DNA of 64,000 nt from Mustelus asterias (taxonomy: Eukaryota), in the NCBI RefSeq assembly GCF_964213995.1, contig NC_135816.1:29326001-29390000 (forward strand), read 5' to 3'. The position numbers and the translations under genes are program-made. Positions 22,761-53,489 of this stretch are shown here, piece after piece. Position 1 is the stretch's first letter, and each line of letters starts with the position of its first letter. The notes beneath the pieces were generated by a model. The model was not told the origin of the DNA. It ran no database searches and saw only the letters and a program-made list of their open reading frames with translations.

Positions 22761-22772
22761 TTTAATGCCCCG

Positions 22773-24827: not shown

Positions 24828-25360
24828 CATGCATTTGGAATACTGCGTCCAGTTCTGGTCGCCACACTACCAGAAGGACGTGGAGGCTTTGGAGAGAGTA
24901 CAGAGGAGGTTTACCAGGATGTTGCCTGGTATGGAGGGGCTTGGTTATGAGGAGAGATTGGGGAAACTGGGGTTGTTCTCCCTGGAAAGACGGAGGATGA
25001 GGGGAGACTTAATAGAGGTGTATAAAATTATGAAAGGCATAGATAGGGTGAACGGTGGGAAGCTTTTCCCCAGGTCGGTGGTGACGTTCACGAGGGGTCA
25101 TAGGTTCAAGGTGAAGGGGGGGAGGTTTAACACGGATATCAGAAGGACATATTTTACACAGGGTGGTGGGGGCCTGGAATGCGCTGCCAGGCAAGGTGGT
25201 GGAGGCGGACACACTGGGAACGTTTAAGACATATCTAGATAGCCATATGAACGGAGTGGGAATGGAGGGATACAAAAGAATGGTCTAGTTTGGACCAGGG
25301 AGCGGCACGGGCTTGGAGGGCCGAAGGGCCTGTTCCTATGCTGTATTGTTCTTTGTTCTC
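24828..25360 (+). mobile_element. Young CR1-type LINE 3' fragment
   Basis: HLEYCVQFWSPHYQKDVEALERVQRRFTRMLPG...; 3' tail ttctttgttct. Confidence 0.9.
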
Positions 25361-25374
25361 TGTCTGCTCTGGAT

Positions 25375-26715
25375 GGCAGGCAATGTTGCGCAGCTTGTAA
25401 CAGACCAGGATAAAGTCCAGAGTGGTCCAGGTGGTGGACACATTGTCTCAGCATACTAGTGGTCTGCTCTATTACGTTTCATGTGGCAATATGGCTTTTA
25501 TTGTATGCATGTTGACGAATTGTGCCACAGTCATCAGGGGATAGTCTTTATCATCCTGTAGTCAACCGTGGTTTATGGAGGCTCAAATGCAGCTACCACA
25601 GTGGACTGTCGTCATGATGGCCGCCAGGATACCAGGCATTTGACCTGCATGATTATGGGCTGCCCCCTTCCCAAACCTGCAGCATGGTCACACACACACC
25701 AGCTGAACATTGGGAGGGAGTGGAATCCCAGTGCAGAGTTGACATGTATCATCCATAAAAAAAGTATGCACAGTCAATGGCATCCTGAGTCATTGGGATG
25801 CCTACAATCCAGCAAAAGCATACAGTCACTCCATCTGCTTAGCATTGGCAAGAGAGAATAAAATATAGTTGGCTCTCATTGAATCTAAATGTCAGGACAG
25901 AATTCTCCCATCTGAGATGAAGCCCCATGGTGGGGGTGGGAATGTGAAGTGTTTTCCACTGTGAAGGCAGCAGGAAAACATGCCATATCTTCCAGTCCCA
26001 AACTCATTAACTATCTAACCATGCATTTTGCACCATATTGTGTGGCAGCGCAGACAAAAAGGTGTGAAGTCTGTCTTGGCATCTGAATGCCCAACATCAC
26101 TGACCCACTATTGAAGAGAGGCTGGAAGATAGATCTCCTGGACACCCAACCTGGAAGGTCCACCTTGAGGTGCTCTCTACCCCCACTGCTATGGTGGTCC
26201 AGGGTTGCTGTTGACCTCTGCTCCGAATTCTGGAGGCAGCCCCAGGCATTGTTCAACTGAGTCATGATATCTGCATTCTGTTATTCCAGACGTGCTTTGC
26301 GCCAATCGGTTTTCCCACTGCCGTTGTGGAGAATTGGGCCTGGGTGGTCAGCCCTACATCTGCATCCCATTAGCGGAATGCAAATCCATTTCACGCCGGC
26401 CCCAGGCGTGTTTTCTGACCTTCTATGGTGAGCACTGACTGAAAATACTGTGGGGAAATTCACATCAGTGTGAAACAGAATATTACACTTGTGCCACATT
26501 CTCGTCCCCTGTCCACTATTGAACACACCAGCAGGGCAAGCGAGAATTCCACCCTCAGTGACTGTCCTTCTATTCAGTGATCCATAAATTGCCAATATCT
26601 CCAGCCTATATGGAACCAGATGCATAAAAATTGCTGTGGTCAAGTTCACAGTCACTGATGATGTGGGCTTTGCCCTGTCCTGAGGTTGCAGCAGGTGATA
26701 AATTTCAGTGAGGAC
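25375..26715 (-). pseudogene. Fossil PIF/Harbinger (HARBI1-like DDE) transposase in two pieces
   Basis: Frameshifted minus-strand peptides LTEIYHLLQPQ, NFYASGS..AGDI, IMQV/NAWYPGGHHD, RQSTVVAAFEPP, G*LQDDKDYPLMT, YNKSHIAT*NVIEQTTSMLRQCVHHLDHSG and FILVCYKLRNIA. Their order matches Harbinger transposase motifs. Confidence 0.8.
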
Positions 26716-27665
26716 TGACGTACAGATAGCTTGTCTCTTGGCTCTAGCTGGGATACAGTTGAGATAATTGCTCCCTGAATCCCTGCTGAAAGCCCTTCTC
26801 TCCTTCCTCCTCCCTCCTTCCAGCAGCACGGCTTTTTTTTCAGTCTCAAAGTCGTGTTGTATTTTGACCAGAAGCCTTGAAATCAGCAAAATGTTCTTCA
26901 GTATCTACCTGTCTTTTTTTTATAACTTGAAACAACAATAGAACCAGCAAAGACTTGTGGAATCATAGAAAATACCCAGCAAGTGACCTACACATGGTTG
27001 ATAATTGCATCAAATAGCACTGATGGAAGCACAATTGTAATGTTGGCACCAAGTATCCTAATTGACATCTGCCTGCTCTGCATACTTCCAGTAGCTTTGT
27101 CTGCACTGACACCTTCGCCAATATGATATCCTGTGCCATTCACCATAGACAGTGTGTTCCCACCACGGATGCCATTTCTTTTTTAGCTCTAAGGGCGCTT
27201 GTAGCAGAGAAAAAGCAGCCACTAATAAGCCCAATGTTTCACTCGATTTCTTAGATGTGCTCCTGAGACTTAATTAAGTATAAGATACAATTATTTCCTC
27301 CTCCTCCCACCATTTATACAATGCAATGTGTGAAACAGATGCCAATAGCTATTTGACAGAAGACGAAAAAGGCTAGAGATTGTTTACTTAAGCTGACCCC
27401 TTCCCCCCCCTAACGTGCAGTAAAATTGGAAAGCAGAATATAACAAGCCTCTCCATTTTTATTAGTAACATCCTCAGTTCATGGTATCCATGGTTGTGCT
27501 GATATTAATTATTCTCGACATTTTTTTCTCTCTCAAAAACCCTTACCAGGTCGATATGGTTCCTCTGTCAACCCGATTATCTCCGTTAGCAAGATTCGGT
27601 ACAAATCTGTCATGTTTATAATTTTTTAATTGAATTTGTTCTTGGACAATGGATGACTATGAAAA

Positions 27666-27740
27666 GAGTAAGAAGTTTAACAACACCAGTAAACTTCTTA
27701 TTGTGTTTACCCCAGTCCAACGCCGGCATCTCCTCATCAT
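27666..27740. mobile_element. Penelope-like mini-element, family 1 (shortest copy)
   Basis: TSD gactatgaaaa (27655-27665 / 27741-27751); taagaagttta...taaacttctta inversion; end gccggcatctcctcatcat. Confidence 0.7.
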
Positions 27741-28557
27741 GACTATGAAAAAGCATTGTTGGTCATCAGTAGTTGCTTGAGAAGGCAGTGGACCTTCCTC
27801 CTTGAGACACTGCAGTCATTTTTGTTAGAATATTTTACAAAAGTATATCGAATTGGGCCAAATCCTTCTTGGAAAATAAAAACAATTTTAGTCTTTTTTA
27901 GCAAATACAATGATATTGAATAAAAGTAGCTATATACTGATAAGATGAGCAGGTCAGTGGTGACCCAGTGTTAAATCTATCTTTTCATAGTTGATGTTCA
28001 CTACCTCCCACGCTGAACATGATTTTTTAAAAAAATGACTACATTGAAACTGAAATCTGCCAAAAAGGTAGTTTGCTTTGGCTCTCCCAATGAGTAAGTT
28101 CCCTTAACTGACCTGTTGTCCAAAAATAAAAATAATGGTAGACTTTTCACTTCCGCGTAGGTTGATGTGTCAAACTCCAAATCCTAATGAGTCTAAAATA
28201 TCCTAGTTTAAATGATAAGTGAGCATCCAGTATGTTAAATCATTTCTATATCACCCTTATTAAGTTTTAAATATAAATGGTGTAATGATGCATGCTAATC
28301 TATAGAGCTATGAAGCAACCTGTTGTAGCTCCCTACAAATTGGGTGGGATTTTCTGGCCACTCCTGGTATGATCCCACTGATGGGGACCCCCTGCCACGG
28401 GTTCCCCAGGGTTGGAGAGTGCAGATAACTGGGAACCCTTTTGACAGGAGCAGGATTGGAAGATGCCACCACTGCAGCCACAAAACACGCCTGGGAGGGG
28501 TGGAAACAGGAGGAGATTTTGATCGAGTAGTGGTCTACAGTGTCACAAAGACGGATT

Positions 28558-28845
28558 GGTGGCACAGTGGTTAGCACTGCTGCCTCTCAGCGCCAGGGAC
28601 CCATGTTCGATTCCCTGCTTGGGTGACTGTGTGGAGTTTGCACGTTCTCTCCATGTCTGCATGGGTTTCTTCCGGGTGTTCCGGTTTCCTCCCGCTGTCT
28701 GAAAGACATGCTGGTTAGGTGCATTGACCGTGCTAATTCTCCCTCCGTGTACCCAAACAGGCACCAGAATGTGGCGACTAGGGGATTTTTACAGTAACGA
28801 CATTGCAGTGTAAGCCTACTTGTGACACTAATAAATAAACTTTAA
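28558..28845 (+). mobile_element. V-SINE tail B
   Basis: Complete head, core and tail ending cttgtgacactaataaataaactttaaac. Confidence 0.85.
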
Positions 28846-29356
28846 ACAACCGCATACGCAGGCAGAAAATCCAGATAATTGGGAAGCACAATTCTCTCCG
28901 AAGGAAATCAAGTTTACTGATTTTTTTTTTTCCCCTGATCGGTGACATCACTAAGTTAACGCCCACAAGGGGTGAGAACCTCATTTTAATTCATTTAAAT
29001 ACATTTTGATTCCTACCACTGAATATTGAAGTCTGCAAATTTCATAACAGCTCTTGCAAAACGAGGGGATCTGTCCAGGGAGCAAAGGCAAGTATAGTCT
29101 CTGAGGAAGCCTGTGTCGGCAAGGGACCCTCATGGGAGCCCCATGCAAGGAGGGATTCTCACTAAAATCTGTCACCTTTTACAGTCGTAACTATAATCTC
29201 AGAGCAGGGCAATGACCATTACCAGTGACTATGAACATTATGGCGGTGATTAACTGTTTATGCATTGGGCTGAATTGGGCACCAGGCTGATGTTGGGGAT
29301 AACTCCAGCATCTCAGTTGCTGTCTACAAGGCCAGTTGATGCTCTTTATTAATTGA

Positions 29357-31735
29357 GTCATCGAGGCTTACAGCATGGAAACGGGCCCTTCGGCCCAACT
29401 TGTCCATGCCACCCTTTTTTTTAAAAACCCCTAAACTAATCCCAATTGCCTGCATTTGACCCATATCCCTCTACACCCATGTAACTATCTAAATGCTTTT
29501 TAAAAGATAAAATTGTACCCGCCTCTACTACTACCTCTGGCAGCTTGTTCCAGACACACACCACCCTCTGTGTGAACAAATTGCCCCTCTGGACCCTTTT
29601 GTATCTCTCCCCCCTCACCTTAAACCTATGCCCTCTAGTTTTAGACTCCCCACCTTTGGGAAAAGATATTGACTATCTACCTTGTCTATGCCCCTCATTA
29701 TTTTATAGACCTCTATAAGGTCACCCCTCAGCCTCCTACGCTCCAGAGAAGAAAGTCCCAGTCTATTCAGCCTCTCCTTATAACTCAATCCATTAAGTCC
29801 CAGTAGCATCCTAATAAATCTTTTCTGCACTCTTTCTAGTTTAATAATATCCTTTGTATAATAGGGTGACCAGAATTGCACACAGTATTCCAAGTGTGGC
29901 CTTATCAATGTCTTGTAAACAAGATGCCCTAACTCCTGTATGCAATGTTCTGACCAATGAAACCAAGCATGTTGAATGCTGCCTTCACCACTGTCCACCT
30001 GTGACTCCACTTTCAAGGAGCTATGAACATGTACCCCTAGATCTCTTTGTTCTGTAACTCTCCCCAACGCCCTACCATTAACTGAGTAAGTCCTGCCCTG
30101 GCTCAATCTACCAAAATGCATTACCTCACATTTGTCTAAATTAAACTCCATCTGCCATTCTTCAGCCCACTGGCCCAATTGATCAAGATCCCGCGGCAAT
30201 TGGAGATAACCTTCCTCACTGTCCACCATGCCACCAATCTTGGTGTCATCTGCAAACTTACTAACCATGCCCCCTATATTCTCCTCCAAATCATTAATAT
30301 AAATGACAAATAACAGTGGGCCCAGCACTGATCCCTGAGGCACACTGCTGGTCACAGGCAGTTTGAAAAATAACTCTCTACAACCAACCTCTGGCTTCTG
30401 TCAAGAAGCCAATTTTGTATCCATTTAGATACCTCACCCTGGATCCCGTGAGATTTAACTTTATGCAACAACCTACCATGCGGTACCTTGTCAAAGGCCT
30501 TGCTAAAGTCCATGTCGACAACATCAACTGCACTGCCCTCATCTACCTTCTTGGTTACCCCTTCAAAAAACTCAATTAAATTTGAGAGACATGATTTTTC
30601 CACACTCAAAGCTATGCTGACTGTCCCTAATCAGTCCTTGCATCTCTAAGTGCCTGTAGATCCTGTCTCTCAAAATACCTTCCAACAATTTACCCACCAC
30701 AGATGTGAGGCTCACTGGCCTGTAGTTCCCAGGCTTTTCCCTGCAGCCCTTTTTAAACAAAGGCACAACACTTGCCACTCTCCAATCTTCAGGCACCTCA
30801 CCCGTGACTATCGATGATTCAAATATCTCGGCTAGGGGACCCGCAATTTCCTCCCTAGCCTCCCACAACGTCCTGGGATATACCTCATCAGGTCCCACAG
30901 ATTTATCTACCTTGATGCGCTTTAAGACTTCCAGCACTACCACCTCTGTAATATGTACACTCCCCAAGACATCCATATTTATTTTCCCAAGTTCCCTAAC
31001 ATCCATGCTTTTCTCAACAGTAAATACTGATTAGAAATATTCATTTAGGATCTCTCCCATCTCTTGTGGATCTGCACATAGATGACCTTGTTGATCCTTA
31101 AGAGGCCCTACTCTCTCCCTTGTTGTTCTTTTGCCCTTTATGTATTTGTAGAAGCTCTTTGGATTCTCCTTTGTCTTATCTGCCAAAACAATTTTGTGTC
31201 CCTTTTTTGCCCTCCTGATTTCTCTCTCAACTCTACTCCTCCACCCCCTCTCCTCTTCAAGGGATTCACTTGATCCCAGCTGCCTATGCACGTCATGTGC
31301 CTCTTTCTTCTTCTTGACCAGGGCCTCAATATCCCAAGTCATCCAGGGTTCCTGACTTCTGCCAGCCTTGCCCTTCACTCCAAGAGGAATGTGTTTACCC
31401 TGAACCCTGGTTAACACACTTTTGAATGCGTGCCACTTACCAGACATCCCTTTTCCTTCCCACAGACTCCCCCAATTAACTTTTGAAAGTTCCTGCCTGA
31501 TGCCATCAAAATTGGCCTTGCCCCAATTTAGAATATTAACTTTTGGGACAGACCTATCATTTTCCATAGCTATCTTAAAACCAATAGAATTATGGTCACT
31601 GGTCCCAAAGTGATCCCTCACTAACACTTCTGTCACCTGCCCTTCCTTATTTCCCAAGAGGAGGTCAAGTTTTTCCCCCTCTAGTTGGGCCATCCACATA
31701 CTGAATGAGAAATTCCTCCTGAATACACTCAAGTG
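29357..31735 (-). mobile_element. CR1-type LINE, 5'-truncated, ORF2 (endonuclease end and RT) broken by frameshifts
   Basis: ORFs 31031-31771, 30572-31006, 30352-30609 and 29615-30355 contain LDLLL...SDHN, NYRPVSLTS, DFSKAFD, VPQGSVLGP and KFADD. Confidence 0.93.
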
Positions 31736-32959
31736 CTGACTACATGTAATTCTCTTGCCAGAGACCAGCATGTAGAGTGAGCATGAGCTTCATGAGAATT
31801 GTAAGCTTTCCCCGTGGTGCAGGTTGCTAAAGATTGCATGCACAAGTCTGCTCTATACCAGAGCCAAATATTTCCCATCAGTTGCTGGGTGACTATAGGA
31901 AAGAATAGTGTAAGCCGACACTATTCTTTCCTATAGTCACCCAGGCAACATGAAATATCAAAGGAAGGCTACTGAATAATAAGGAAGAGTAGACAAAACC
32001 TAGACAGTACTGCCTGGCCATAAAAAACTCATCTGAATGTAATACCAGTTTTTTTTTTAAAAACCCTAATTCCCCCATTAGCCAACAATTTCGCACCTTA
32101 CCTTTCCTCTGTCCTATTTGCTTGCTCAATGCAAAAATGAACACTGGTGCAAAATACAAATGACAAACCAAATTTATGTACGAAATTATTCCATATTGCA
32201 AGAGTCATGAACTAATCACTCTTGGGCATTCCCTAAATGCCTGTCGTCTTTGTCTTTGCCCATCCTGGTGGCTCTCTGTATTGCTACCCCTATGGCTATT
32301 GCTAGTGGAAGGCTGGTGAAGCTGATTAATATAAGCTGATTCACTGTACGCAGGTCCAACTTCTATGCTATCCTCTAAATTACAAACAGTATCTGATTAA
32401 TGTGATGGGCTGTGCCTTCAACATCACTGTTTTCTCTTTGCTTCCCTGCTGCCTGGCTGGGTTTTATATTTCTCTTTAAGACACAAAAGGAATTGAGGGG
32501 CATGGTCTCACCAATCTGCAATTTGTAAATCGGAAGATCGTGTGGGGTGAGGAGGAGGATTAAGTAGGAAGATTCTGTCATTTTCGGTGGTTTCAGCCTC
32601 TCTATTGGCAATGGTCTGAGCAACGGTCAACCCAGTAATGGCCAGTCATGTATCCTCCATGGGAATCAGGAGGTTCAGGCTCACTTATATGAGTGGTTAG
32701 CACTTGCTGCTTTTGTTTGTGCACCACCATGTCCTGGAAGAGGGAGAAGTATGTCAATGAGTGTCCCGAAACCTGTTTTTGGGTTATGTGGTTGTTATCG
32801 TTATCAGTGTGTACAAGCTGTGAGATAAATGAGGCTTGCAGCAGTGTTTTGAGGGTGCAGTGGAACATACGGAAGTCATGTTCGAGTCCTGACTAAGCCA
32901 GATTGTTGTTCAGTGAAATATTGTGGGGTGGGGTGTCGTGACTGGAGCAGTGTCTGAAG

Positions 32960-33433
32960 CAGGGAATTCCACATTTTGGGTTGTGACCCCAATGGCATTG
33001 TGGGATGAACAGTGGGGTCCTGAGCTCTGAGATGACCACGGTGACTGGAGTGAAGATTTGAGACTTGACAACCCTAGGATTGGGTGCAAGGCCCCTTTTT
33101 AAATGTGATTTTTGTGATAGACATGGATTAACATAAACTGTCAGGCCTGATAGCTGTCAACAGCAACAGCCTGCAAAATCATGGCAGGTGTCTTGTTTTT
33201 ATTTTTGTGTGCCAATAATCCAGGTGTTTAAACTCCCCTAAACCTGGTCAGTAATCTACCCTCTTTTCTTCCCCCCACCCCACCCATAAAAAAAACCCTG
33301 GTCAGTACTCTTCTCCATTCAACTCTTGCTCCTCTCATCCCAACCAAACCCCTCCCTTTTGAACATCAAAGATACACCAAATGTGAAATATTAAAATGGA
33401 AGCACACAGTGGAAAAGGTTTTGAGAAGCATTG
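32960..33433. mobile_element. Old hAT (Charlie-like) non-autonomous element
   Basis: Ends cagggaattccacattttgggttgtgacccc / aaaaggttttgagaagcattg; degenerate 8-bp TSD gtctgaag / gtctgggg. Confidence 0.5.
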
Positions 33434-35675
33434 GTCTGGGGCCGATATGGCTAGTCGAATATGACATTTGTGGATTTATTCACTGACCACTCATGAGGTT
33501 ATTGAAATTCTTACAACATTGCCTCAAGTCCTCGGAGTATTGACCTCTCTGCTCCCGCTGGCTTCTGAATGTGCATCTGGAGAGCCTCTTGGCACCTTGT
33601 GGATGTAGGACATCCTTCTCCTATCCATAAAGACCTCAGTGCAGTGTCCAAAAACCTTAGCGCTTGCTGTCTTTCATGTGATGCCATTCTTCAATGTTTT
33701 ACATGTCTGATTCTCTTCTGCACAACTACAGGTCCCAAGCCCATCCATAATACACCTCCCTTGAAAGTTGCTGATTGGCTTTAAGCAGTGTTTTAACTGA
33801 TGCTAGCCACTTACAATATCGGTCACCTCCTGAAATACTCTGCCACTCAATCCCACATTTATCACTGACTGATCACTGAAATTATTTAAGGTGGCAAGCA
33901 GCACAAAGCCCTGCATCCATGTTGAACAGAACCACGATAATTGTGCATTGTGTTCCCCTCAATCATTTTGGGAACTATTGAATTTAGCCGCCATCATTGA
34001 GGAAATTAAATATGATGCATTGAGGGGGAGCATAAAGAAAATTAAGCCCTCTATCAGAAATGTCTTATCCCTGCCAGAAATGAGAGCATCAGCAGAAATG
34101 GATTTTGTCACAAAGTCTTGTTCCTCCACACTCACTATCCTTGAATTATGTGTCCGTCCCCGCCCCCCAAAAAACATTGATTATTTCTTTGCCAGCGGAG
34201 GCTGAAGCAATTTGGCTCACAATTTAGCTCTGAAGTGTTGAAGGTAGTTGTGGAAAACAAACTATATTACTCATCTTTGCACTTGATTTACTAAATTCGG
34301 AGAACACATGTTTAAAAAATTCTTTAGCTGCATGCATTTGAAGTCAAATTATTGCAACGCACAATGGTTAGGTAAGGGTTGTAACCTTCAAGAATCTAAC
34401 GGAGGAAATTATCAGCAACCAAATATTTTTCCCACGTTGAGAGGGGAAGAAACGATGCTTTCTCTAGTTGATAATGGCATGGTGACTTCAGATTGTTTGA
34501 TTTTTCCTTTGCAGAACAAGAGATCTGTGATTTGAATATTGGTATGACAGCTGCAGGAAATTTGTGTTCCTGCTGGTGGTCATTTGAGAGAATTAGAATA
34601 GAACTTTTATTGTTCATGCAAAAGTGGAAATTTATCTTTGGCTTCGCCTCCAGTATACTCGTACAGTGATTAGTTTAAAAGTAGTGAATATTTCATGGAT
34701 ATCTACGTTCATACATTTTGTGCATATATAACACATCCATACCACATATGCATAACACATTGCTCTCTACCATTAACGCACTTACTGCAGTTGAATAAAT
34801 AAAAACTGTGGCTTGAGTTCACATTGTTATTTAGTAAACGTATAGCATTGGGAACAAAAGATCTCTTGAACAGATTTTTCCTGGCAATAGGTATTCTGAA
34901 GTGTGGCCTGAAGGGCGCCTTTCAAGTTACAGATATAAAGAGTGAGAGGGATCACCAATGATGGCCTGAGTTCTCCTCTTAACTGCATCGCTAAATAGAT
35001 TAATGAGCTGTGTCTGCTGTCTACCAATGATTTTTCCTGCAATGTTGACAATTCTGGCCAACTTACTTTTGCATTTCACACTAGGTTACTATGCCAGACT
35101 GTCATGTTGAATATTTGCCTTTACTGTAATTATCTCCAGCTGCATCCTGCTGCAATGCAAATATGACAAGCAGTGAAATAATTTTAAATATCTAGAGCAG
35201 GTGCACAGTTCTCATGCGCACTTTCTTGTCAGCGGCTGAACAGTCTGGATTGGCTGAGCCTGGAAGCGGGTTACCTATCCCTATTTTACTTGAGGAAATT
35301 AAATGTAAAGCAGACAAAACCTAATGAGAGAAGCTGAATTAAAGAAAAAAATGTTTTTTCCAAATGTCATTTGAAAGACATTTTCTGTTGTTTGAATTGA
35401 AAACCTCAAGATTGACAATTTACCAATGTTTGTGTTGGCTAATATTTTGCACGCTGTTATTTACTCTTAAAGGGGCTATGTCACAAAGTGATCTGAACAT
35501 TTAGCTGTGATGTCAATGGCATCATTCACACCCAACTTGTAGCTGAGGAATAGCCAGTTTAGACGCCTGATATTGCAGGCGACTGCAGAAAGCTGGGATG
35601 GGATGGGGTGGTGAGGGAGGGAATTATAGCCGTTAATGCAATAGTCTTTCGTGAAGCAATGTAGCTTTTGATAGC

Positions 35676-35778
35676 AAAAGAGAAAATGCTGGGAATCTTA
35701 GCAAGTCTGGCAGCATCTGTAAGGAGAGAAAAGAGCTGATGTTTGAAGTCCAGCATCCGCAGTAATTTGCTTTTATCC
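35676..35778. mobile_element. Penelope-like mini-element, family 2, with an internal inversion
   Basis: 14-bp TSD tagcttttgatagc (35662-35675 / 35779-35792). Its 3' part ccagcatccgcagtaatttgctttta is the reverse complement of the start of the 8550 copy. Confidence 0.7.
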
Positions 35779-36244
35779 TAGCTTTTGATAGCCAATCACT
35801 CTGACAAGCTATTGATTTAGCCATAAAGGAGCATTCCTCATTTTGAGGCAAGAAAAATTTAACAGCGGTTACCATCGCTTCAATTGGTTGTAGAGTAAAT
35901 TAACAGATGCCTGTTGGCCAGGAGTCAAGGGAACAGCACGTTTTGAGGAAGTTGACCTTTAAAAATGGAGAACAATGTTAATTTTAAAATGTATACATTT
36001 TTGCAAAAGCCTAAGTATTGCGGACACTGAAATCTGAAATACAATCAAAACATTGGCAAGATTCAGCAGGTTAAGATTGTCTGTCCATCCGTCCACCCGC
36101 CCGGATTGATCTTTCACCCGAGTTGTGTTGGCCAAGTTTGCAGTTGTAAAGTGTGTTGTGATGACAGCGGAGTTTTGAGGTGTTACTAACCTTTTGAATC
36201 TTCTGCACATACTCTGTTAGATAACAAAGCCCCTTAAAATCATG

Positions 36245-36347
36245 TCCGCTTCTTCTAGTGTCATTTTCTTTTCTCTTGTAACTTTCTCTTTGTCTCTCTG
36301 TCAGTGTATTCTCCTCTCTGTCTCACACTCCCTCATACCCTCTGCAG
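36245..36347 (+). promoter_or_regulatory. Extended CU-rich polypyrimidine tract upstream of the F gate exon (candidate PTB sites)
   Basis: About 100 nt rich in TCTT and CTCTCT motifs, far longer than the tracts at the other acceptors in this gene. Confidence 0.5.
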
Positions 36348-36425
36348 AAAGTGATCTTTCCAAGACAGGATGATGTCCTTATTTCCTTCTTGCCTCTGGC
36401 GCACATGTTTGAGAGAGTTATCCAG
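36348..36425 (+). CDS. ACSL6: ACSL6 alternative gate exon, F-type (78 nt)
   Basis: ctgcag| KVIFPRQDDVLISFLPLAHMFERVIQ |gtaaga; D-x4-F-LPLAH gate motif. Confidence 0.96.
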
Positions 36426-36472
36426 GTAAGAGTCTATCTCACCATGCTTGTGCCACTTATTATGTTTTACAG

Positions 36473-36550
36473 AGCCAATGGCTGCCTACATCTGATGATG
36501 TACATATTTCCTACTTGCCATTAGCACACATGTTTGAAAGAATGGTACAG
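36473..36550 (+). CDS. ACSL6: ACSL6 alternative gate exon, Y-type (78 nt)
   Basis: ttacag| SQWLPTSDDVHISYLPLAHMFERMVQ |gtaaga; D-x4-Y-LPLAH gate motif. Confidence 0.96.
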
Positions 36551-36585
36551 GTAAGAATGGCCCATTGAGTCTATATGGGCAGCAA

Positions 36586-36760
36586 ACTAATGTCTGCCAC
36601 TCTTCTTCACATCTTCAAAAGTCTACACTAATTTGCTGTTCTGTCTTTCCTGCTTTTCAGTGAAGTCTTGGTGAAGAGCAGTGTAGGCATTTATTTATTA
36701 ACAAACTGTAACAGTAATATTGCAGCATTTGTTTATTAACAGACTAGAACAGTAACATAC
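36586..36760 (+). promoter_or_regulatory. Cluster of QKI-type motifs downstream of the Y gate exon
   Basis: ACTAAT at 36586-36591 and 36627-36632; TATTAAC twice within a 38-nt-period imperfect duplication (36687-36759). Confidence 0.4.
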
Positions 36761-37284
36761 TGTGGCCACTGATCACAGTACGTTTTTGTGCCTTCTAAGA
36801 TTCTTCAATTTCATTACCTTATAAATACATTGTTTGTGATTCTGTGATAGTCTATATCAATATTGTCATACACAGCTTAACAAATTGTTCAAAGTCAATG
36901 TAACATGATGCATTTTTTTTCTCAATTATCATGACTGAGTTCAGTTTAATGTGCCCACAAATCAGGATTGAAGGACAATGGTAATTCAGCACATGATCTG
37001 TCCAGAATGTCAACCCTTTAATTTTCCTATAACAACATCTAGATGTTTCTGAAGCTAATCCTGAGGCCGGCCCACTTCCGCACCCCCCCCCCCCCCCCCC
37101 CAACCCTCCAGCTACCATTTTAAACATGCTGATCCTCTTGTACAAAGAAAGACTTCCTGATATCAGTTCTGTATTTATTTATAATCTGGCAGATTTTGAA
37201 AGTAATATTTTGTTTGTCTCATGTACTTTGCATCCGTCTGTAAACATATGCCTAAGATTACCCATTCTTGAGGTTGATGGTGTC

Positions 37285-37760
37285 CATAGAACCATGGAAA
37301 AGTTACAGCACAGAAGGCCATTTGGCCCAATTTGTCCATGCTAGCCCGGGGTACCCTTTCTAATCCCACCTTTCTGTACCTTGTCCATAGACCTATAGTT
37401 TACAGCACTTGAGGTGCAGATCCAGGTACTTTTTAAAATTCTAATGAGGTTTTCCCATCCGGCATTTATCTCCATCATCATCCAAGTATCTCTGGCATTG
37501 GTTCCTCCATGGTTCCTCTTTATTGGAATGTACCCAGGCCTGTACCTAAAACATCTTATTAAAGATCACCCATTGTTCCATTAGTTTTGCTGTCAATCTT
37601 TGGTTTAATTTTACCCTGGCTAGATCCCCCTCATCCCACTGAAATCAATACTCTAAAAAATTTAGAAATTTCACTTAAGATTGTTCCTTTTTCTTTACTA
37701 ATCTAAACCTTAGGATACAATGGACACTCTTGGTCAAATGTTCCCCCACAGACTGGCCAC
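37285..37760 (-). mobile_element. CR1-type LINE fragments (3' UTR and decayed ORF2)
   Basis: catagaaccatggaaaagttacagcacagaaggccatttggccc terminal motif, also found at about 47740. Confidence 0.6.
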
Positions 37761-37866
37761 TTGCAAACATTCTCTCTGCTCATGGCTAACCTGAGATGCT
37801 TTGAACAATTGGTATAACGGCATTATTGGGGCTGTTTTCATTAAATATGATTTCATTTTCTTTCAG

Positions 37867-38001
37867 TCTGTAGTTATATGCCATGGAGGCCGGATAGGTT
37901 TCTTCCAAGGTGACATTAGGCTCCTATCTGATGATATGAAGGCTCTTCATCCAACTATTTTTCCTGTTGTTCCAAGACTGCTAAATCGAATGTATGATAA
38001 G
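37867..38001 (+). CDS. ACSL6: ACSL6 exon 12 (135 nt)
   Basis: tttcag| SVVICHGGRIGFFQGDIRLLSDDMKALHPTIFPVVPRLLNRMYDK |gttagt. Confidence 0.96.
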
Positions 38002-39211
38002 GTTAGTTCTATTGTGTAGTAATGCACAATCTATAAATAACGTGTTACAAGGTAATAAGAATAGCTTGCATTTATATTGTGCCTGGAAAATCAAGAAATA
38101 TCAAAGAACTTCATAAAGAGGTGAATAAAATTAAAATAGATTTTAAAAGATGTGTAGGGGAATAGATGCCATGTGATTTGAGAGTATGAATTTGAGGTTG
38201 GGATAAAAGCACTATCTTTTATTGACCACTGGTGGGGAAGATGTAGAGAAGTCTAGAATTAGGACCTGAAGGATTTGGGCAGCCATAAGACTAGATGAGA
38301 TATGAGATAACAAAGGTAAAATGGGAAGAGAACACTGAGGAATTTGAATATAAGTATATATTTGATGCATGGAGATGGGGTTTTTGTAACTTAGTGCAGG
38401 TAAAATTATAGCCAAGGTGGCGTTGATGGAAGGAGAATGATGAGTGTGGGGCGCGCAACACCTTGCAGAAATTGGTTCTGTTTTCCCTTTGTGTGAAATC
38501 TTCGACCATGAGGTGCATCCCGAACACCTTTTAGGATTTATTAAGGCTCCAGTCGCTAATGTGCCTGGAATAGATGGAGATTGGCATCAATGGTGTTGTA
38601 AGACCAGTGGTTTCTATATTGCTAGTTACAATTCTTTACATCATTCACCTTCCATGAGCTTCTAATGCCTTTGTCCCTGCCATCTGTCCTTGATCAACCA
38701 GGCTTTTGTATCATCCTCCCAATCTTTTCATATGCCGTTTCCCATGAACGGTTCCACAACTCCCTCAAGACAGCCCATCTGCAGTCTTCAAACTAGCTTT
38801 CAGGAGCCTTGTTTGCATTTGCCTGTTTTATCAGTTGTTTATGCTTAGAAGCATTCATTGAGTATCCAGCCCAAATGTTTCTTATTAAAACATAAAATGT
38901 TACACTAATTTACTTTTGCAGTCCAGCAAGCATCTTGATTAGGCAAGGCAAGCTGATAAACCTAACACAGATTGGCTTCCCACACAAACCTTTGGTTAGT
39001 CAGAAGTCGACAATTTCTGGTGCTCAGAAGAGCGGGTTAAAATCAGAACCTTCTGCGGGAAAAAAGCAGGATTTTAGCAGGCTGGTCCCACTGGCAATTT
39101 TAACTGCACTTCTGCCCAGCTTCCACCAAATGAACAGCCTTAAAAATGCTCAAGTGAAAATTTTTATGATTGTGGTAGACTAAAGTACAATTTTTGTTCA
39201 ATTTAATTTAG

Positions 39212-39346
39212 ATATTTAGCCAAGCAGGTACACCAGTAAAACGCTGGCTACTGGAATTTGCTGCTAGAAGAAAAGCAATCGAAGTGCGGAATGGCATTAT
39301 AAGGAATGACAGCCTATGGGACAAACTCTTTTTCAAAAAAATACAG
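39212..39346 (+). CDS. ACSL6: ACSL6 exon 13 (135 nt)
   Basis: atttag| IFSQAGTPVKRWLLEFAARRKAIEVRNGIIRNDSLWDKLFFKKIQ |gtaaaa. Confidence 0.95.
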
Positions 39347-39489
39347 GTAAAAAAATTGCTCATTTTGAAACCATTAGGGACAAGGCTTAACACATCAGTA
39401 TTCCTGTCTGTAGAATTTTCTCCTGGAAAGCGCTTTGGAATACATTTTGGCTCCTAAAATGATGTGCTGAAAAATTAATTCTTGCAGTT

Positions 39490-40080
39490 TGAACATATTA
39501 ATTAGGAGGAGGAGGAGTCTGTTCAGCCCCTCTGAGCCTGTTCCGCCATTCAATGAAATCATAGCTGATCTGTTTATGGTCTCAACGCAACACTCCACCT
39601 ACCCCTGATAACCTTTGATTATCTACTTCTTCCCTCAATTTAAAACATATTCATTGATCCTGCCTCCACCACACTCTGGGAAGAGAGTTCCAAAGATTCA
39701 TGACCCTCACAGAAAAATTCATCTCGTATCTGTCTTAAATGGAAGATCTTGGCCGGAATTCTCCGGCCATTCAGGTCGGCGGATTCTCTGGTCTTGCCGA
39801 CAACGCCACCTCGTTCGCGGGTTTCCGGCCAAATTGGGGTGATGTCAATGGAAATTCGCATTGACGGTGGCGGGACCAGAAAATCCCGCCGCGAGCAAAC
39901 AACGCACCACCTCCCACCAGCAGGAAACATGCGACTGGGAGACCAGAGAATCTCTCCCCTTATTTTCCAACTGTGTCCCCTAGTTCTAGTCTCTCCCACA
40001 AGAGGTAACATTCTATCAGCCTTCACCCTGACAAATCCCCTCGGGATCTTGTACGTTTTACGATTACCTCTTAATTTGAA
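39490..40080 (-). mobile_element. CR1-type LINE 3' fragment with a nested MITE
   Basis: Minus strand TYKIPRGFVRVKADRMLPLVGETRTRGHS plus 3' UTR. Confidence 0.75.
39751..39958. mobile_element. PIF/Harbinger-type MITE (208 bp)
   Basis: TIRs ggccggaattctc / gagaatctctccc; 3-bp TSD CTT; CpG-rich; interrupts a LINE. Confidence 0.8.
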
Positions 40081-40874
40081 TTTTTTTTCATATAAAATAT
40101 AGGTCAGCATATTATTACAAAAAATTGTAAAGTCAATGGTTTATCTTTGATTCAAAAAATTATATTTTCGCCCATTAGAAATGATTTTTAATTACAGCAA
40201 GGAAATGGTGTACCCTCCTGCACACCAGTGAAATCTTCTTCAACAACTTCTGTGCTATCAATAATCACATCACACATGATAAAAGGAGATGAGAAATGGC
40301 ATTCAGTGGATAATGAAAGCCATTCAGCCTATACCAGGCTCACTTAATAAAACAAAGACTGGCTACAGTCATCGCCAAATTACCTTCTATTATGTCAAAG
40401 GACTGCAATATAAGAACTGATTTCAATGTTCTGTGCTAGTTCCCACTTTTAGTATAGTGTTTTAAGAGTTATTTTTATTTCCATTTTTCAGAGAGCAGTT
40501 CTACTGACATTAACAATGGGATTATTAGCTTGATGCTCCATGGGGAGTCTTGCAAATTGGTGTTTGGGCCACATGGGAGGGATCTAAGATGAGTAAAAAT
40601 AGAGCTAGCTAAAAATATAGCACCGTCAACCAATACTGGGTTTTTGTGGCTCAGCCACCTCCTCGCTGTTCTTTCAGGATTGAAAGGAATGCAAATCTTT
40701 AGTATTTTTAATTTCTGTTGAAAGCACTCCGATTAAGAGCATTTTTTGATTGCACTTTGAAACCCAGCTTAAGTAGCTGCCTCCAGCAGCATAAAGCGGT
40801 TGTGCAATTTATGCCTTGCTTTTGTTTTTGGCCAATTTGTATTCTGCTAATTTGGATATATTTTGTTTCTATAG

Positions 40875-40970
40875 GATAGCCTTGGGGGCAAGGTGAGAAT
40901 GATTGTAACGGGGGCTGCTCCTGCCTCTCCTGCTGTACTTGGCTTCCTAAGAGCAGCACTGGGTTGCCAG
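40875..40970 (+). CDS. ACSL6: ACSL6 exon 14 (96 nt)
   Basis: ctatag| DSLGGKVRMIVTGAAPASPAVLGFLRAALGCQ |gtatga. Confidence 0.96.
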
Positions 40971-41261
40971 GTATGAAAACTAGCACTTTTCATTACAACT
41001 TTTTAAGTTTTTCATAATGTTTTAAAATCCAAATAAGAGGTGTTTTTTTTTTTTACCTACTTTCCAAAAAAATTCCCAAATACCACCATATGTTCAGTCC
41101 TCTCTTCTGGTTGTACCTGATCTACTTGGGGATAGATTCTGTGGGGGATGGTTGAATATAAATGCCAGCGTAGGCAGATGTCTCATGATTCATAAAATCA
41201 ATTCAAAAGCAGGTATGGATGCACAACAGGACTGACTGTCATCTTAGCCTCAGAAGTTATA

Positions 41262-42975
41262 AAGAACACATGAAATAGGAGCAGGAGTAGACCATTGTGC
41301 CAGCTCTGCGATTCAATATGATTATGGTTGATCTTGGGCTCTGACTCCACTTCCCTGCTTGTTCCCCACATCCCTCGATTTCTGGGAATTCAAAAATCTG
41401 TCTATCTCCATCTTGAATTTATTCAATGATGGGGCAGAGAATTCCAAAGATATGCTGTGAAGTAAATTTCCTTCATCTCCATCCTAAATGATCGGCCCCT
41501 TAAACTGAAACTGTGCTCCCACGTTTTTTTGATTCCCTGACCAGCAGAAGCAATCTCTCAGCATCAACCCTTTATAATCTTGTACATTTCAATGAGATTG
41601 CTTCTCATTCTTCTAAACTCAAGACAAAATAAACCCATGTGCTCAGCCTTTCATCATCGGACAACCCCCTACATCCCAAGGGCCAATTAATGGACCTTCG
41701 CTATACCACCTCCATTGCAGGTATATCTTTTCTTTAAATGTGGAGATGAAAACTCCAGATGTGGTCTCAACAAGGCCCTGTACAATCCTAGCACCATGTC
41801 TTTATTCCTGTACTCCAGTCCCCTTGCAATAAAGTCCAACATTCCAATTGCCTTCCTAATTGCTTGCTGTCCCAACATATTAACTTTTTACATTCCTTGT
41901 ACGAGCACACCCAAGTCTCCTTGGGCATCAACATTTACAGGTTTTACACCCTTCAGAGAATACTCTGCTCTTCTATTTTTTGATCAAAGTGAATAACTTC
42001 ACACTTCCCTACACTATATAATCCATTTGTCATCATGTTGCCCTTAACCCATCCATATCTCTTTGCAGCCTCTGTGTTCTCTCCACAGCTTACCTTTCCA
42101 CCTAGCTTTGTATCATCAGCAAACTTAGATACATTACTCTGTTTCTTCTTCATCTAAGTCAACGGTCTCAACTCCGATCCGAAGCGGCCCGCTGCGGGCC
42201 GGATGTGGCCCGTGGGCCGTAGTTTGGAGACCCCTGATCTAAGTAATTAATATAGATTAGAACTAGCTGGGACCCCAACACACAGTATTAATGTAAGCCT
42301 ACTTGTGACACACATAAACTTTAAACTTACCTTTATCTTACCTTGTCAGTTCTCCCCTTGTACCTACGTAATTGGCTTTGCTTAAGTTTAAGATTCTTGT
42401 TTGTGTTCAGAGTATGTCGCTTTCAATTTTAACCTGGAATACGATGGTATTATAATCACTATTTCCCAATGGATCTTTTGCTGTGACATTAATTAACCTA
42501 CACTAGGTCTAAGATAGCTTCATCCCTCGTTAGCTCCAAAAATGTATTTGTCCAAGAAACTCTCAAAAGCATTTCACAAACTCATCTTTGAGACCACCCT
42601 TGCCAATTTGATTGTCCTGGCCTATATGAAGAAGTCCCACAATTATTATGTCGCCATTGTTACAAGCTTCAGTGATTTCATGTTTAACGTTTTGCCCAGT
42701 GATGACTCTGGGGCCTATAAATTCCTTGCACCAATGTTTTTTTGACTCTTTCTGTTCCTAATTTCCATCCATACTGATTCTACTTCATGATTTCAGAGGC
42801 CAGATCCCTTCTCTTGTCATGTTTGCTATCAGAACTCCCCCTCTTTCTTTGCCATTTCATTTGTTTTTCCGAAATATCGTGTATAACCCATCCATGTCTC
42901 TTTGCCGCCTCTGTGCTCTCTCCACAACTTGCCTTTCCACCCAGCTTTGTATCATCAGCAAACTTCGATACGTAA
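41262..42975 (-). mobile_element. Decayed CR1-type LINE fragments
   Basis: SKFADDTKLGGKV and FIARGLEYRNKDMVLGLYRALLRPHLE; 3' UTR at about 41262. Confidence 0.8.
42160..42236. mobile_element. hAT (Charlie-like) mini-element, 77 bp
   Basis: Perfect 8-bp TSD atctaagt (42152-42159 / 42237-42244); right end agtttggagacccctg; left end caacggtctcaact; repeated ggccc/gggcc subterminal motifs. Confidence 0.8.
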
Positions 42976-44268
42976 CTGTTTCTTTTTCATATTGAAACCT
43001 GTACCCTTCTTGGGCTGTTCCATGACTCACACATTTAAGTAGCTGTATCAGGATCCTATGACCCTGGGATGTAAGTAGTTTTCAGGTACAATGAATGGAT
43101 GGTATGCCATTCAAGGACGTCCACCTGAGATTCGTCAGTTCCCCAGAATCCAACACGTCTTGCCAAATTGAGCTTCCACAACTCTGTGGGACAGAACATT
43201 CCTAAGACTCACTACCCTCTGAGTGAAATTCTCCTCCATCTCAGTCTTATATGGCCTGCCCCTTATTCTGAGATGGTGTTTCCTGGTTTTAGACTCTTCA
43301 GCTAAGGAAAATTCACAATGTCTGTTTGTAAGTGGTTTCAAGGGTTTATATATTTTTTATTAATATTTGAAAAGGGATGATTGACATTTTTAGCTTGTGA
43401 TGAAATTACTTTTTCAACATGGGAGGAAGTTGTGAATCAATTGCTTTTATTTTACTTAAACAGACCACTATATACCACAGGGTTCATTGATGCCTATTGA
43501 CCCACTATACACTACTAAGAACCAAAGTGCCATAGCTAGGCATAGGGCGCATGAAGGACCATGAGTGGGTATAAGGGCAGAGCTGGGCGTGAGAGGCCAC
43601 AGCATGTGGATGAAAGGGCAGAGTTTGAGGTGGTTGATGAAGAGCCATGGGGATGGGTGGGAAAGGCAGAGCCTGGGGGCATGATGAGGACCTTTTGAAT
43701 GTACCTGTTGAAAGATCCCCTCACGCAGACTAGGTTCCTGACTGCTCTGAGGGGCAGTGAACTACAACTTTAAAAAACAATATCTAGCTCAGCTGCATGA
43801 AAATTGCGGAGGAGTAGGAAATGCCTATCTTGGCAATGGAGCCTGCAAGGCCGGGAGTGCTGGATATGGACTTTAGACAGAAACAAGCCCATATCCTTTT
43901 ACAGGCGAAGTTTACTGACAACTCAACAGGTTTGAAATTAATAACTGACCATAGCATCAACTGCCATTTGCAAAAGTGTTCCAAACATTTACCAAATTTT
44001 TTTGTCTCTTTCTCTCTCTCTCTCTCTCTCTCTGCTCTATCAATTCTCCATAAGGTCTCAAAAACTTCAATAAAATTGCTCTTTAATAAATTCCAGTGAA
44101 TGAAAAAACACTATATACAATCCCTCTTTGTTCTACTAAATTTATACTGCTCTCCTTCTAAGGCTAATATGTACTTTCAACAGTATGGTGCCCAGAACTG
44201 AGTCACTAACAGATGTGGTTGGTTTAACCACTGCTTTGAAATGGAAATATAACTTCACCCCTTGTATT

Positions 44269-45460
44269 TGTGATGAAATCGGTGGTCGAAGGAAGTTCCA
44301 AGTTTCTCTGCATGCTACGGATGGAGAATGGCCACACATGTGCAGTTTGTTGATTTTTCACATCTTCAGGCCATTACATGACCCTGCACAGTTTTTTTTT
44401 TTATTGCTTCAGATTGGGAACTGGCCCTATGCTGGCACAGAATGAAAAGAAAGATTGAAAGAGGTTGGGTGACCTGAAGAGAATGCCATTCCAGAGAAAG
44501 TGACAAATGGAGCAGGATACTGGGAGGGATGGACAGGGAGATGGTCCCAAACTATGGAGGGAGACAAAGTGGTCCCACAAGATGGTCGAAGTTAAGGGAC
44601 AATGACAGGAATCTGAATGGGGTCCTGTTGAGGAACAGAGCAGTTAGCTCGTAATTGAGAGAGAGCTGCAGTGAGCAAATTTGAAGCGAACTGGCTTGAG
44701 AGAAGCCAGAAGATCGGAGAGGACAGCTAAAGATTAGTGACCCCTTGCTGTAAGGGTAAAGGTCCCCTTTGGATCATTGGTGTTCTGCATTGCATAGCTG
44801 AATATATAAGTATGCCTGGAAGCTGAAGCTTGAATGTACGTTGAGATCTGGGGAAAGGAACATGGAGTTTGAAACCCTGAGGTGAATCCTTTTAAAAGTT
44901 TTTGAGTGGAACTGACATTTGAGAGTGAATTCCAAGGTGAGTTCTTGGGAGTGAGAAAATTGGAAGTCCTTCAGTGAGACTGGTTGGCTGGTGAGGTAAC
45001 CAGTGTCTTGGGCTATTGAGAAGTTCTTGGAATCTGTTTTGGTGGCATCCGTCACTCATTTTGGAGTGTGGTGTGTCCAATTATGGTCCATCTATTCATT
45101 TACATGTACTGCATATTTGCTGTGAATATCTCAAAATGAGCGATAAATTGTTTTATTTGGGGGAATTTGTATATATTTGTAAAGATTTAGTGGATGAAGG
45201 AGTAGTGTGATTTGATTCACTTACTGATATCTGTATTGAAACCTTTCCAACTTTTTGTCGAGTGCAAATCTAGCTCATTTTTCTTGTTTAATAAATATTT
45301 TATTCCTTTGTGTTTAAAAATACACTAGCAGATTCCTGTAAATGTCTTCAGTAATTGCCTTCCGTGGTTTGCTTAAAAAAAAATAAGGTTGAGAACTATC
45401 AAATGAGCTTTCACTCCGGGATCTGACTTTTGCAGTATAATATCAGCTGGGATTGTAACA
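44269..45460 (+). repeat. 5' LTR
   Basis: Starts tgtgat and ends agctgggattgtaaca; shares blocks such as tgcagtttgttgatttttcacatcttcaggc and attgcttcagattgggaactggcc with 48773-50005. Confidence 0.8.
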
Positions 45461-45974
45461 AAGTGGGGGCTCATCAGAGTTCGTAGTAAGGTGAGGTCTC
45501 TTGCAAGATTAAAAATTGTTGAAGTTCAGTGGAATCTGTGAATATGTGTATGTGGAGGTACTGTGCATAGGAATCTGATTTGCTGTGAAATATTTTATCA
45601 AAATAATTTTGACAGTTGCCAAGGCTTTTCTGAATGTAGAAGTTGCAACAGTAGATTATTTGAAGTTCTTGACTAAGGCTAAACTGTGAGTTAGCAGGTA
45701 AATCGCAGGATTTTGTTAGTATGACACGATTTAAAGTAATTGCCCATCAGGAGAGAAACCCTATGTTGGGGTGTCTCAGCTAGAGTTGGCTAAGAATCAG
45801 TTGCAAATGAAACAGCTTGAGCGAGTGACAGAGAGAGAATGTGGGTAAAACTTGAATTAGAAGCAGAAACAGCAAAATAAATGCAAGAACTTGAAATCCA
45901 GAGGTTGGCAAGTGAAGAAAGAGCATGAAAGAAATCAGATAACATGCCTTGGGGTAAAAGAAGAAATGATCGTT

Positions 45975-46735
45975 CAAATTTTGGAAGGTCGAATACAGAT
46001 AGGAAATTATACAGTAAATGGCAGGACCCTTAAGAGTATTGATAGGCAGAGGGATCTGGGTGTACAGGTACACAGGTCACAAAGTGGCAATGCAGGTGGA
46101 GAAGGTAGTCAAGAAGGCATATGGTATGCTGGCCTTCAACGGCGGGGGCATTGAGTTTAAAAACTGGCAAGTCATGTTGCAGCTTTATAGAACCTTAGTT
46201 GGGCTGCACTTGGAATATAGTGTTCAATTCTGGTCGCCGCACTACCAGAAGGATGTGGAGGCTGTGAAGAGGGTACAAAGAAAGATTTACCAGGATGTTA
46301 CCTGGTATGGGGGGGGGGGGGGGCATTAGCTATGAGGAGAGGTTGGAGAAACTTGGTTTGTTTTCACTGGAACGTTGGAGATTGAGGGGTGACCTGATTG
46401 AAATCTACAAGATTGAGGGGCATGGATAGAGTGGATAGTCAGAAGCTCTTTCCCAGGGTTGAAGAGTCCATTACTCGAGGGCATAGGTTTAGGGTGCGAG
46501 GGGCAAGGTTTAAAGGAGATGTATGAGGCAAGTTTTTTTTTTTACAGAGGGTGGTGGGTGCCTGGAACTCACTGCCGGGGGAGGCAGAGGAAGCAGATAC
46601 GATAGTGACTTTTAAGGGGCGTCTTGATAAATACATGAATAGGATGGGAATGGAGGGATATGGTCCCCGGAAGGGTAGGGGGTTTTAGTTCAGTTGGGCA
46701 GCATGGTTGGTGCAGGCTTGGAGGACCGAAGGTCC
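45975..46735 (+). mobile_element. CR1-type LINE 3' fragment nested in Gypsy gag
   Basis: KKAYGMLAF...LYRTLVGLHLEYSVQFWSPHYQKD plus 3' UTR. Confidence 0.88.
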
Positions 46736-48772
46736 TCTGACTAATTAGATTTAACCAAAAATCTTCTGTTAGTACGTAACTTAGCAGACTATAGCATTGA
46801 AAGAAATTTCACCTCATTTGAAAATGTAGCTGTGAAGTTGAATTAGTCAAAAGAAGCTTGGACCTTTAATGTTATGAAGTGGCCTGTCAGGTATAAAAGT
46901 ACATGTGTACACTAGTTTGTCAGAAGAGCAGTCTGCAAACTATGAAGTGTTAAAAGCATCAATATTTGATGTTCAGAACTGATCCCTGAAGCCCATCAGC
47001 TAAAGGTTAGGACCATAAGAGATAAATCTAATCAGACCTTCACAGAATTTGGGAGAAAAAAAGAAATGCTCTTGGATCACTGACGTTAGATAAAAATGTT
47101 GTAAAGGTGAGGGGAAATCATGATTATGGAAAAATTAGGAAATAACATTCCAGTAACCAGTAAGAATTGGATGAGTGTCAAGCAAAAAAACTCCAAGAAA
47201 TGGTGGTTTTAATGGATACCTAATGATAAATTACACAGGAAGTAGAGTGTGAGGAGATGGTCATAGGGAGGTTGAAAGGAAAATTGGAGAAATAGAAAAT
47301 CTGGTGATGAACGATAAAATAGTTCTAGAGAATAGACAGATGGGCGCAAATGTGAGAAAGGAGCTTGGCTAGAATCTAAAAGGATACAAAGAAAATGATG
47401 TGCTTCCATTGTGATAAGATGGGACATAACAAAGCTAATTATCGGAAATTAAACGGGAACCCATTTGCAGCAGTAGGAACTCTAGGGGAATTCTCAGAAA
47501 AGATTCTACCAGAAAAGGAAATGAGTTTTGCAGCCATAGCAGTGGTAAAAGGTGAAACGTGTTCCCTCAGAGCCTACTAGAAAAGAGGATATAGCTCAAG
47601 ATAGTCAAGAGAATTCTTCCTCAATTACTGCTAAAGAAAGTTTGGCTACGGGAGATTCTGCATATTTTATCTCTTGAGGAGAATTGTATCCTTACTACTC
47701 CAACAAAATAAGTAAGCAAATTAAAATTTTAAAATTATGGAACATAGAAAAATTACAGTGCGGAAAGAGACCATTCAGCCCATTGTTTCCACACCAGCCA
47801 AAAAAGAGCAAAAGAAACTAGCCACTTATTTTAAGCCAACTTTCCAGCACCTTGTTTGTAGCCTTGCAGGTTTCAACATTTTGGATGCAGACCCAGATAC
47901 CTTTTAAATTAATTGGCCCCAACCACCAATTTAGGCAGTGAATTCCAGATGCCCATCGCTCCTTGGGTGAAAGTTTTTCCTCATGTCCCTTTAATCCTTC
48001 CACCAATCATCTTAAATCGATGCTCCCTGATAATTGACCCATCCGCTAGGAGAAACAAGTCTTTCCTGTGAAAAGAGTAACGAGGTTCTTAAACCTCTAT
48101 GAAATCCAGAGAACATCTAAGAGGAAATATGTTATGAGGAGGAATCAATGTCTAGAGATACTGATAGTGCTTGCCAGTGTTGATGCACAAGCTACAGCAG
48201 TTAGAATCCAGGCAAGTGGACAGTTTTCAAGACACCATTCAAAACGTGCCCAGGAGTGGAATGATGTAGCTTGTGAATTAGTGAGAACCATAAAATTCCA
48301 GAGGTGGAAAGGATTGATGTTACTCAAAGGACTAAAAACCCATTGAAAATGGGATTGGGATTGATTGGGAGAAATCTGCATGATTGTAAAATGTTCAAAT
48401 TTAAAACCGAGCAGGAATATGAAACCCTATTGTGTGAATGTAAAAAAGCATCTCCACATTCCTTGAAATAGCTAAAATATATTTTGGTCAAAGGGAGAAT
48501 GAGTTGTTAATGCATAAATTTGCCATTTTCACCTGACGCAATAAGAATTTGCCACATTCTAGTTCAGAAATTGAGCTGGAGAATGGAATTACACCAACCA
48601 TGATGAGAATGCAATGATGTGTAAATTCTTCCTGCTGAGCTTTTCTTAAGTCTTTGTAGTTATGCAATATGATGTGTGTAGTTGGGAAATGAGATTGGGT
48701 TCTTGTATAAAGGCCATAATGCCATTGTAAAGAAATCTTCACTGGAATGGAACTTTTTCTTTAAGGGGAGGG

Positions 48773-51526: not shown

Positions 51527-51528
51527 GT

Positions 51529-53480: not shown

Positions 53481-53489
53481 GACAAAGTC

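Follow-up and report, generated by a model that had tools for sequence, protein, structure and literature searches.

In the ACSL6 gene of the shark Mustelus asterias, the two alternative gate exons are separated by a spacer of only 47 nt, which probably acts as a steric lock against splicing both exons into the same transcript. We analyzed a 64,000-nt window of the genome (the whole stretch of DNA under study; contig NC_135816.1, positions 29,326,001 to 29,390,000), in which the gate exons and their surroundings are arranged as follows.

3216..62862, plus strand: ACSL6 coding exons within the window, covering residues 1 to 594 of the 698-aa protein P0276; the gene runs beyond the window end
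23254..23327, plus strand: upstream constitutive exon, encoding the second half of the ATP-binding P-loop region, with its donor at 23328
36248..36347, plus strand: F-exon acceptor with a long pyrimidine-rich tract (100 nt, 78% C+T by sequence composition)
36348..36425, plus strand: F-gate exon of the L316/F319 type, 78 nt, phase 0-0, also present in P0276 and joined to 37867 in an X1 contig
36426..36472, plus strand: 47-nt spacer, not G-rich, with a U2-type donor (gtaaga), a short U-rich tract and the Y-exon acceptor
36441..36441, plus strand: candidate branch-point A in CTCAC from a motif scan, spacer base 16, position -32
36459..36459, plus strand: second candidate branch-point A in CTTAT from the same kind of scan, spacer base 34, position -14
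36473..36550, plus strand: Y-gate exon of the H316/Y319 type, 78 nt, phase 0-0, joined to 37867 in X4 and X8 contigs
37867..38001, plus strand: downstream constitutive exon, 135 nt, from sequence and contig joints

Judged by its sequence, the host gene is an orthologue of ACSL6. The shark protein P0276, which its source names ACSL6 isoform X3, equals the window letter for letter over 17 exons (594/594 residues) and uses the F exon. The downstream exon matches proteins named ACSL6, with 100% identity to the cartilaginous-fish entries; used as a query, this short 45-aa stretch retrieved no solved structure of a close relative. The F exon translates as KVIFPRQDDVLISFLPLAHMFERVIQ and the Y exon as SQWLPTSDDVHISYLPLAHMFERMVQ, both open in frame 0. 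Both exons are flanked by AG and GT, with identical donors (CAG/gtaaga), and carry the motif D-x4-(F/Y)-LPLAH-x2-E, with L316 and F319 in the F exon and H316 and Y319 in the Y exon. They are identical at 51/78 nucleotides and 16/26 amino acids. As the F exon reached no more than 38/78 in its best ungapped alignment elsewhere in the window, on either strand (mean, 20; SD, 3.9), this resemblance lies far beyond chance and identifies the pair as a duplication. The initial annotation had described two paralogous 78-nt, phase 0-0 exons with identical donors and a 47-nt spacer, placed between flanking exons ending at 23327 and starting at 37867, and had named them the F- and Y-gate exons of ACSL6. 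The coordinates proved exact in the sequence, both flanking boundaries were correct, and the gene identity and the order of the exons (F upstream of Y) both held.

Steric exclusion of adjacent exons is associated with donor-to-branch distances below ∼50 nt (PMC5740500, PMC7969005), and human intron lengths are distributed with a threshold near 65 nt (PMC4463651), which the shark spacer does not reach. Every possible branch point in this spacer would lie less than 47 nt from the F-exon donor. Because the whole spacer is thus below the ∼50-nt threshold, the steric argument is independent of any particular adenosine. The initial annotation had proposed a steric mechanism with 36441 as the best branch point, and only part of this stands. 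The A at 36441 does lie in CTCAC at spacer base 16, but yTnAy occurs three times in the spacer (bases 16, 34, and 44) where shuffled spacers average 1.36 and have at least one in 81% of cases, a count not above chance that gives 36441 no preference. The related DNA run X20 spans the spacer with three substitutions and no indel among the rows listed; 36442 C>T leaves yTnAy at 36441, and 36458 T>C leaves it at 36459. As X20 keeps both motifs alike, and the motif alone cannot favor one of them, we dropped 36441, a plausible candidate, as the specific branch point. The distance argument for the mechanism held; 5/102 amniote models that join F to Y (described below) speak against an absolute form of it.

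The conserved length of the spacer is stronger support for the steric lock than the branch-point motif. The spacer measured 47 to 66 nt in 6/6 ACSL6 and ACSL1 cases: 47 nt in ACSL6 and 53 nt in ACSL1 of this genome, 57 nt in human ACSL6 and 66 nt in human ACSL1 (computed from the exon coordinates in the PMC8373072 supplement), and, from gene models that read through the spacer, 57 nt (19 codons) in parrot ACSL6 and 54 nt (18 codons) in frog ACSL1. The shark ACSL6 spacer is the shortest of the six, and the remaining introns of the gene range from ∼120 nt to 13 kb. Since the gap is short in both human genes and in the ACSL1 gene of this genome as well, a steric lock is likely and likely inherited. 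The proposed sequence of events is that U1 at the F-exon donor and U2 at the Y-exon branch point would be unable to assemble together, that this incompatibility would lead to one gate exon being chosen per transcript, and that RNA-binding proteins would bias the choice by tissue.

Two other kinds of lock were considered and rejected. Both exons are 78 nt long with identical U2-type donors, and therefore neither frame nor splice-site type can enforce exclusion: double inclusion stays in frame, leaving nothing for decay to remove, and there is no U2/U12 mismatch. Retention of the spacer, on the other hand, shifts the frame and leads to a stop within the Y exon. Scanning for local pairing revealed no unusual fold of the spacer region in ACSL6 (z = -0.96) or ACSL1 (z = +0.44), so local RNA structure gives no signal as a lock.

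A different explanation is that RNA-binding proteins or long-range RNA pairing repress one of the two exons, with the spacer being incidental or a partial barrier and some F+Y mRNA being made. We consider this unlikely, although several observations fit it. Human introns of 37 to 65 nt can be spliced, and while most of these are G-rich, non-G-rich cases exist (PMC4463651, PMC5435141); the shark spacer has 8 G in 47 nt and no GGG. The 100-nt tract of the F-exon acceptor, at 78% C+T, is a possible regulatory element, and depletion of ILF2 in human cells raised the skipping of both ACSL6 exons (bioRxiv 10.1101/2022.06.15.495552). However, ACSL6 is not among the fusion events that the same passage of that preprint names, and the unremarkable local fold at both loci also speaks against repression of this kind. 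Repression would further have to be reconciled with a spacer whose length stays at 47 to 66 nt in both paralogues between shark and human, despite a sequence that is poorly kept when the paralogues are compared.

The steric lock predicts that each gate exon is spliced singly, and the assembled reads bear on this prediction. Four of 23 runs were mapped onto 36200 to 38100 as contigs only, a form in which rare variants are dropped and absence is not demonstrable. Three of these runs (X1, X4, and X8), from three coded organisms and studies, are probably RNA, a nature that was guessed, with none of the listed runs registered as RNA. The F exon was joined to the next exon (36425>37867, GT..AG) in an X1 contig, and the Y exon was joined to it (36550>37867, GT..AG) in X4 and X8 contigs. 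The single splicing of each exon is thereby seen at the downstream junctions, in contigs, as the initial annotation had expected. It had also predicted that a 36425>36473 junction would be lacking, and no such F-to-Y joint is among the 15 of 30 joints listed, though contigs cannot prove absence.

Each of the probable RNA runs gave one isoform, a pattern that would also arise if this shark kept one gate exon as a silent relic and made a single isoform. The ACSL6 proteins that equal the window letter for letter are likewise of the F isoform only among the matches listed, but this rests on 15/37 members of the protein cluster. Neither exon is damaged and the splice sites of both are good, related sharks splice both (X1, X4, and X8 contigs), and the Y peptide of this locus is identical in P0270, P0274, and P0275, the same peptide occurring in models of Heterodontus and Scyliorhinus. 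We therefore regard a relic exon as highly improbable here, even though the loss of a gate exon does happen, as teleost ACSL6 models, which use the first exon alone (57/57 with a gate), indicate.

Short, low-depth contigs of X1, X4, and X8 also covered 36200 to 36335, the pyrimidine-rich intron next to the 5′ side of the F exon; they may represent pre-mRNA, DNA carry-over, or similar CT-rich repeats. The intron 3′ of the Y exon contains a C run near 37081 to 37100 and a fragment of a high-copy interspersed repeat (37285 to 37440), where depth in the DNA run X20 is in the thousands.

Annotated proteins offer a broader view of exclusion by the proposed lock. Among the matches listed, exactly one gate exon is present in 45/45 cartilaginous-fish ACSL6 proteins, and 10 of 19 named species have annotations for both the F and the Y isoform. 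The 55 cartilaginous-fish ACSL1 proteins listed have one gate exon in 54 cases, none in 1, and both in 0. Both exons are thus joined in 0/100 cartilaginous-fish ACSL6 and ACSL1 models among the matches listed, which argues against the repression alternative. Amniotes are less uniform: the 102 ACSL6 models include 79 with one gate exon, 13 with none, 5 that read through the spacer, and 5 that join F directly to Y. The last group consists of RefSeq models of four marsupials (Sarcophilus, Macrotis, Phascolarctos, and Dromiciops) and one grouse (Tympanuchus), corresponding to proteins P0357, P0360, P0361, P0364, and P0098. These models favor the repression alternative, and they may mark either a lock that has truly relaxed or an annotation artifact passed on between models. 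Seven ACSL1-like models also join both exons; they are mostly hypothetical, unnamed-isoform, or ab initio entries.

The ACSL6 models of cow (P0007) and bat (P0035) begin the F exon halfway through. They match the human v4 variant, which uses an internal acceptor in the F exon (PMC1543647), and an AG stands at the corresponding position of the shark F exon.

We compared the shark peptides with human peptides from the PMC8373072 supplement and, likewise, with the mammalian stand-ins P0024 and P0069. What the initial annotation had said of the human peptides was accurate: the F peptide is identical between shark and human, and the Y peptide differs at exon residues 4, 7, and 8. The asymmetric constraint that had been read from this difference is not supported by the comparison (0/26 versus 3/26 differences; P = 0.24 by Fisher's test), and it is further undercut by two constitutive exons that are also identical to those of mammals (cow and otter). 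Across cartilaginous fishes and amniotes, 2 columns vary in the F exon and 5 in the Y exon, a weak tendency. The F exon of teleosts shows differences at 3 or more positions.

To place the pair among its paralogues, we searched this genome (G000) with the downstream exon and found at least two further copies, one on C6 and one on C11; no fourth paralogue (ACSL2) is among the 3 matches listed. The C6 copy matches a protein named ACSL1-like at every residue of the queried exon and also has tandem gate exons (L002:1506-1714), with the 53-nt spacer and Phe at the gate position in both. The C11 copy (L006:912-989, minus strand) has a single Y-type gate exon with Ile and Tyr. As a single gate exon fits the description of ACSL5 in PMC1543647, this paralogue is probably ACSL5.

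In a tree of gate exons hand-picked from the matches, with one exon per species, a single branch (support, 94/92) separated the first exons (n = 20) from the second exons (n = 19) of both paralogues. With 26 columns, the split was recovered in 94% of bootstrap trees, just short of the starred level, and the single C11 gate exon fell on the second-exon side. The exon pair and its short spacer would on this basis be older than the duplication that gave rise to ACSL1 and ACSL6. The initial annotation had dated the switch to the jawed-vertebrate ancestor, an inference already made in 2015 (PMC4494069) but too young in light of the 2021 catalogue, which lists Chordata (PMC8373072). In Table 2 of PMC4494069, ACSL1 and ACSL6 appear as paralogues with this event in common, and the duplication is placed in jawed vertebrates; the supplement of that paper reports the pair by BLAST in coelacanth only, whereas lamprey, gar, zebrafish, and fugu gave none. 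The PMC8373072 supplement gives Chordata as the last common ancestor for both ACSL1 (event 6) and ACSL6 (event 7), and the ACSL1/ACSL6 exon event has been catalogued as kept across the gene duplication. As far as these exon sequences can tell, our tree agrees with the Chordata dating.

The functional meaning of the pair comes from mammals. The gate exons of ACSL6 were originally described in PMC1543647. Activity of human ACSL6 is set by the gate exon, with residue 319 responsible for the gating, and a pairing of His316 with Phe319 is reported to be nearly inactive (PMC2868784). In mice, neurons and testis are enriched in the F form, which prefers DHA, and astrocytes in the Y form (PMC8262339, PMC13184358). 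Transferred through the near-identical peptides, the same substrate switch would be expected in shark ACSL6.

The gate residues in ACSL1 do not all follow this pairing. Among the matches listed, the second ACSL1 exon pairs His316 with Phe319 in 13 of 18 elasmobranch species; the other 5, namely, four carpet sharks and Narcine, have His with Tyr there. His with Phe also occurs in the ACSL1 of hedgehog, kangaroo rats, pocket mouse, bat, Hymenochirus, and Denticeps. The gate motifs across 311 proteins comprise Leu with Phe in 128, His with Tyr in 91, His with Phe in 41, and other pairings in 4. From these counts and the His-Phe exons of ACSL1, it follows that Leu or His at residue 316 tracks the exon class better than Phe or Tyr at residue 319. 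A broader proposal, which we hold with belief and doubt in equal parts, is that both ACSL1 and ACSL6 inherited a steric lock, formed by a spacer shorter than 70 nt, that predates their duplication, and that the conserved determinant of the switch is Leu/His316 rather than Phe/Tyr319. Under this proposal, the ACSL1 switch of most sharks and rays would have Phe in both exons. The His-Phe form of elasmobranch ACSL1 would then either be a natural low-activity isoform or indicate that the human gate rule is bound to its context.

Among 61 teleost ACSL6 proteins, the gate motif was present in 57, every one of the first type, so the Y exon may have been lost from teleost ACSL6. This pattern is in line with the BLAST result in PMC4494069, which reports no pair in zebrafish or fugu. 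The milkfish model P0315 has Tyr in a first-type exon.

The exon pair, the shark isoforms, and the age of the event are already known. The closest counterpart is the F/Y pair of exon 11 in human and rodent ACSL6 (Soupene and Kuypers 2006, PMC1543647; Soupene et al. 2010, PMC2868784), which resembles the shark pair in gene, exon sizes, order, motif, and 316/319 pairing. The human F peptide is identical to that of the shark and the Y peptide is identical at 23/26 residues, whereas the spacer is 57 nt rather than 47 nt and the substrate preference and tissue use are known from mammals. NCBI entries for sharks, skates, and rays (such as P0276, P0009/P0271, and P0008/P0282) include both forms, with P0276 corresponding to the exons of the window, but this annotation names neither mechanism nor function. 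Catalogues of substitutions derived from tandem exon duplication contain the same event (PMC8373072; PMC4494069, Table 2; PMC5740500, cluster 2342), though their rows for it give neither spacer length nor mechanism.

The proposed lock itself has precedents in other genes, and alpha-tropomyosin exons 2 and 3 are a case of sterically enforced mutually exclusive exons. OGDH exons 4a and 4b resemble the shark pair in having a branch point less than 50 nt from the upstream donor; however, the branch points that OGDH uses are mapped and distant, and its intron is longer, whereas in shark ACSL6 the whole intron is below the threshold and the candidates come from motifs (PMC7969005). The shark spacer also has the donor-to-branch distance (<50 nt) that characterizes 57 human clusters (PMC5740500). 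In these steric cases, as in shark ACSL6, the exons are in frame, and therefore no decay filter applies. In the literature searched (non-subscription journals), we found no steric cause given for ACSL6 or ACSL1 exclusion and no account of the shark exons. ACSL6 is not named for the 57 steric clusters in the text or supplement rows of PMC5740500; its appendix figure may include ACSL6, which makes this weak evidence that no steric claim has been published. The main text of PMC7954323 and the supplement of PMC7969005 contain no mention of ACSL, and PMC3890633 covers the gene family without the gate exons.

The shark locus leaves the known age, existence, and function of the switch unchanged. With the shortest spacer of the six (47 nt), it is a clean test case in which the steric model could be examined by minigene. 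If the broader proposal is true, either the His-Phe form of ACSL1 has low activity by nature or the human gate rule depends on its context. Given the DHA-preferring neuronal F form and the astrocyte Y form of mice, a lock on the choice between the two exons would matter for the lipids of brain, retina, and sperm.
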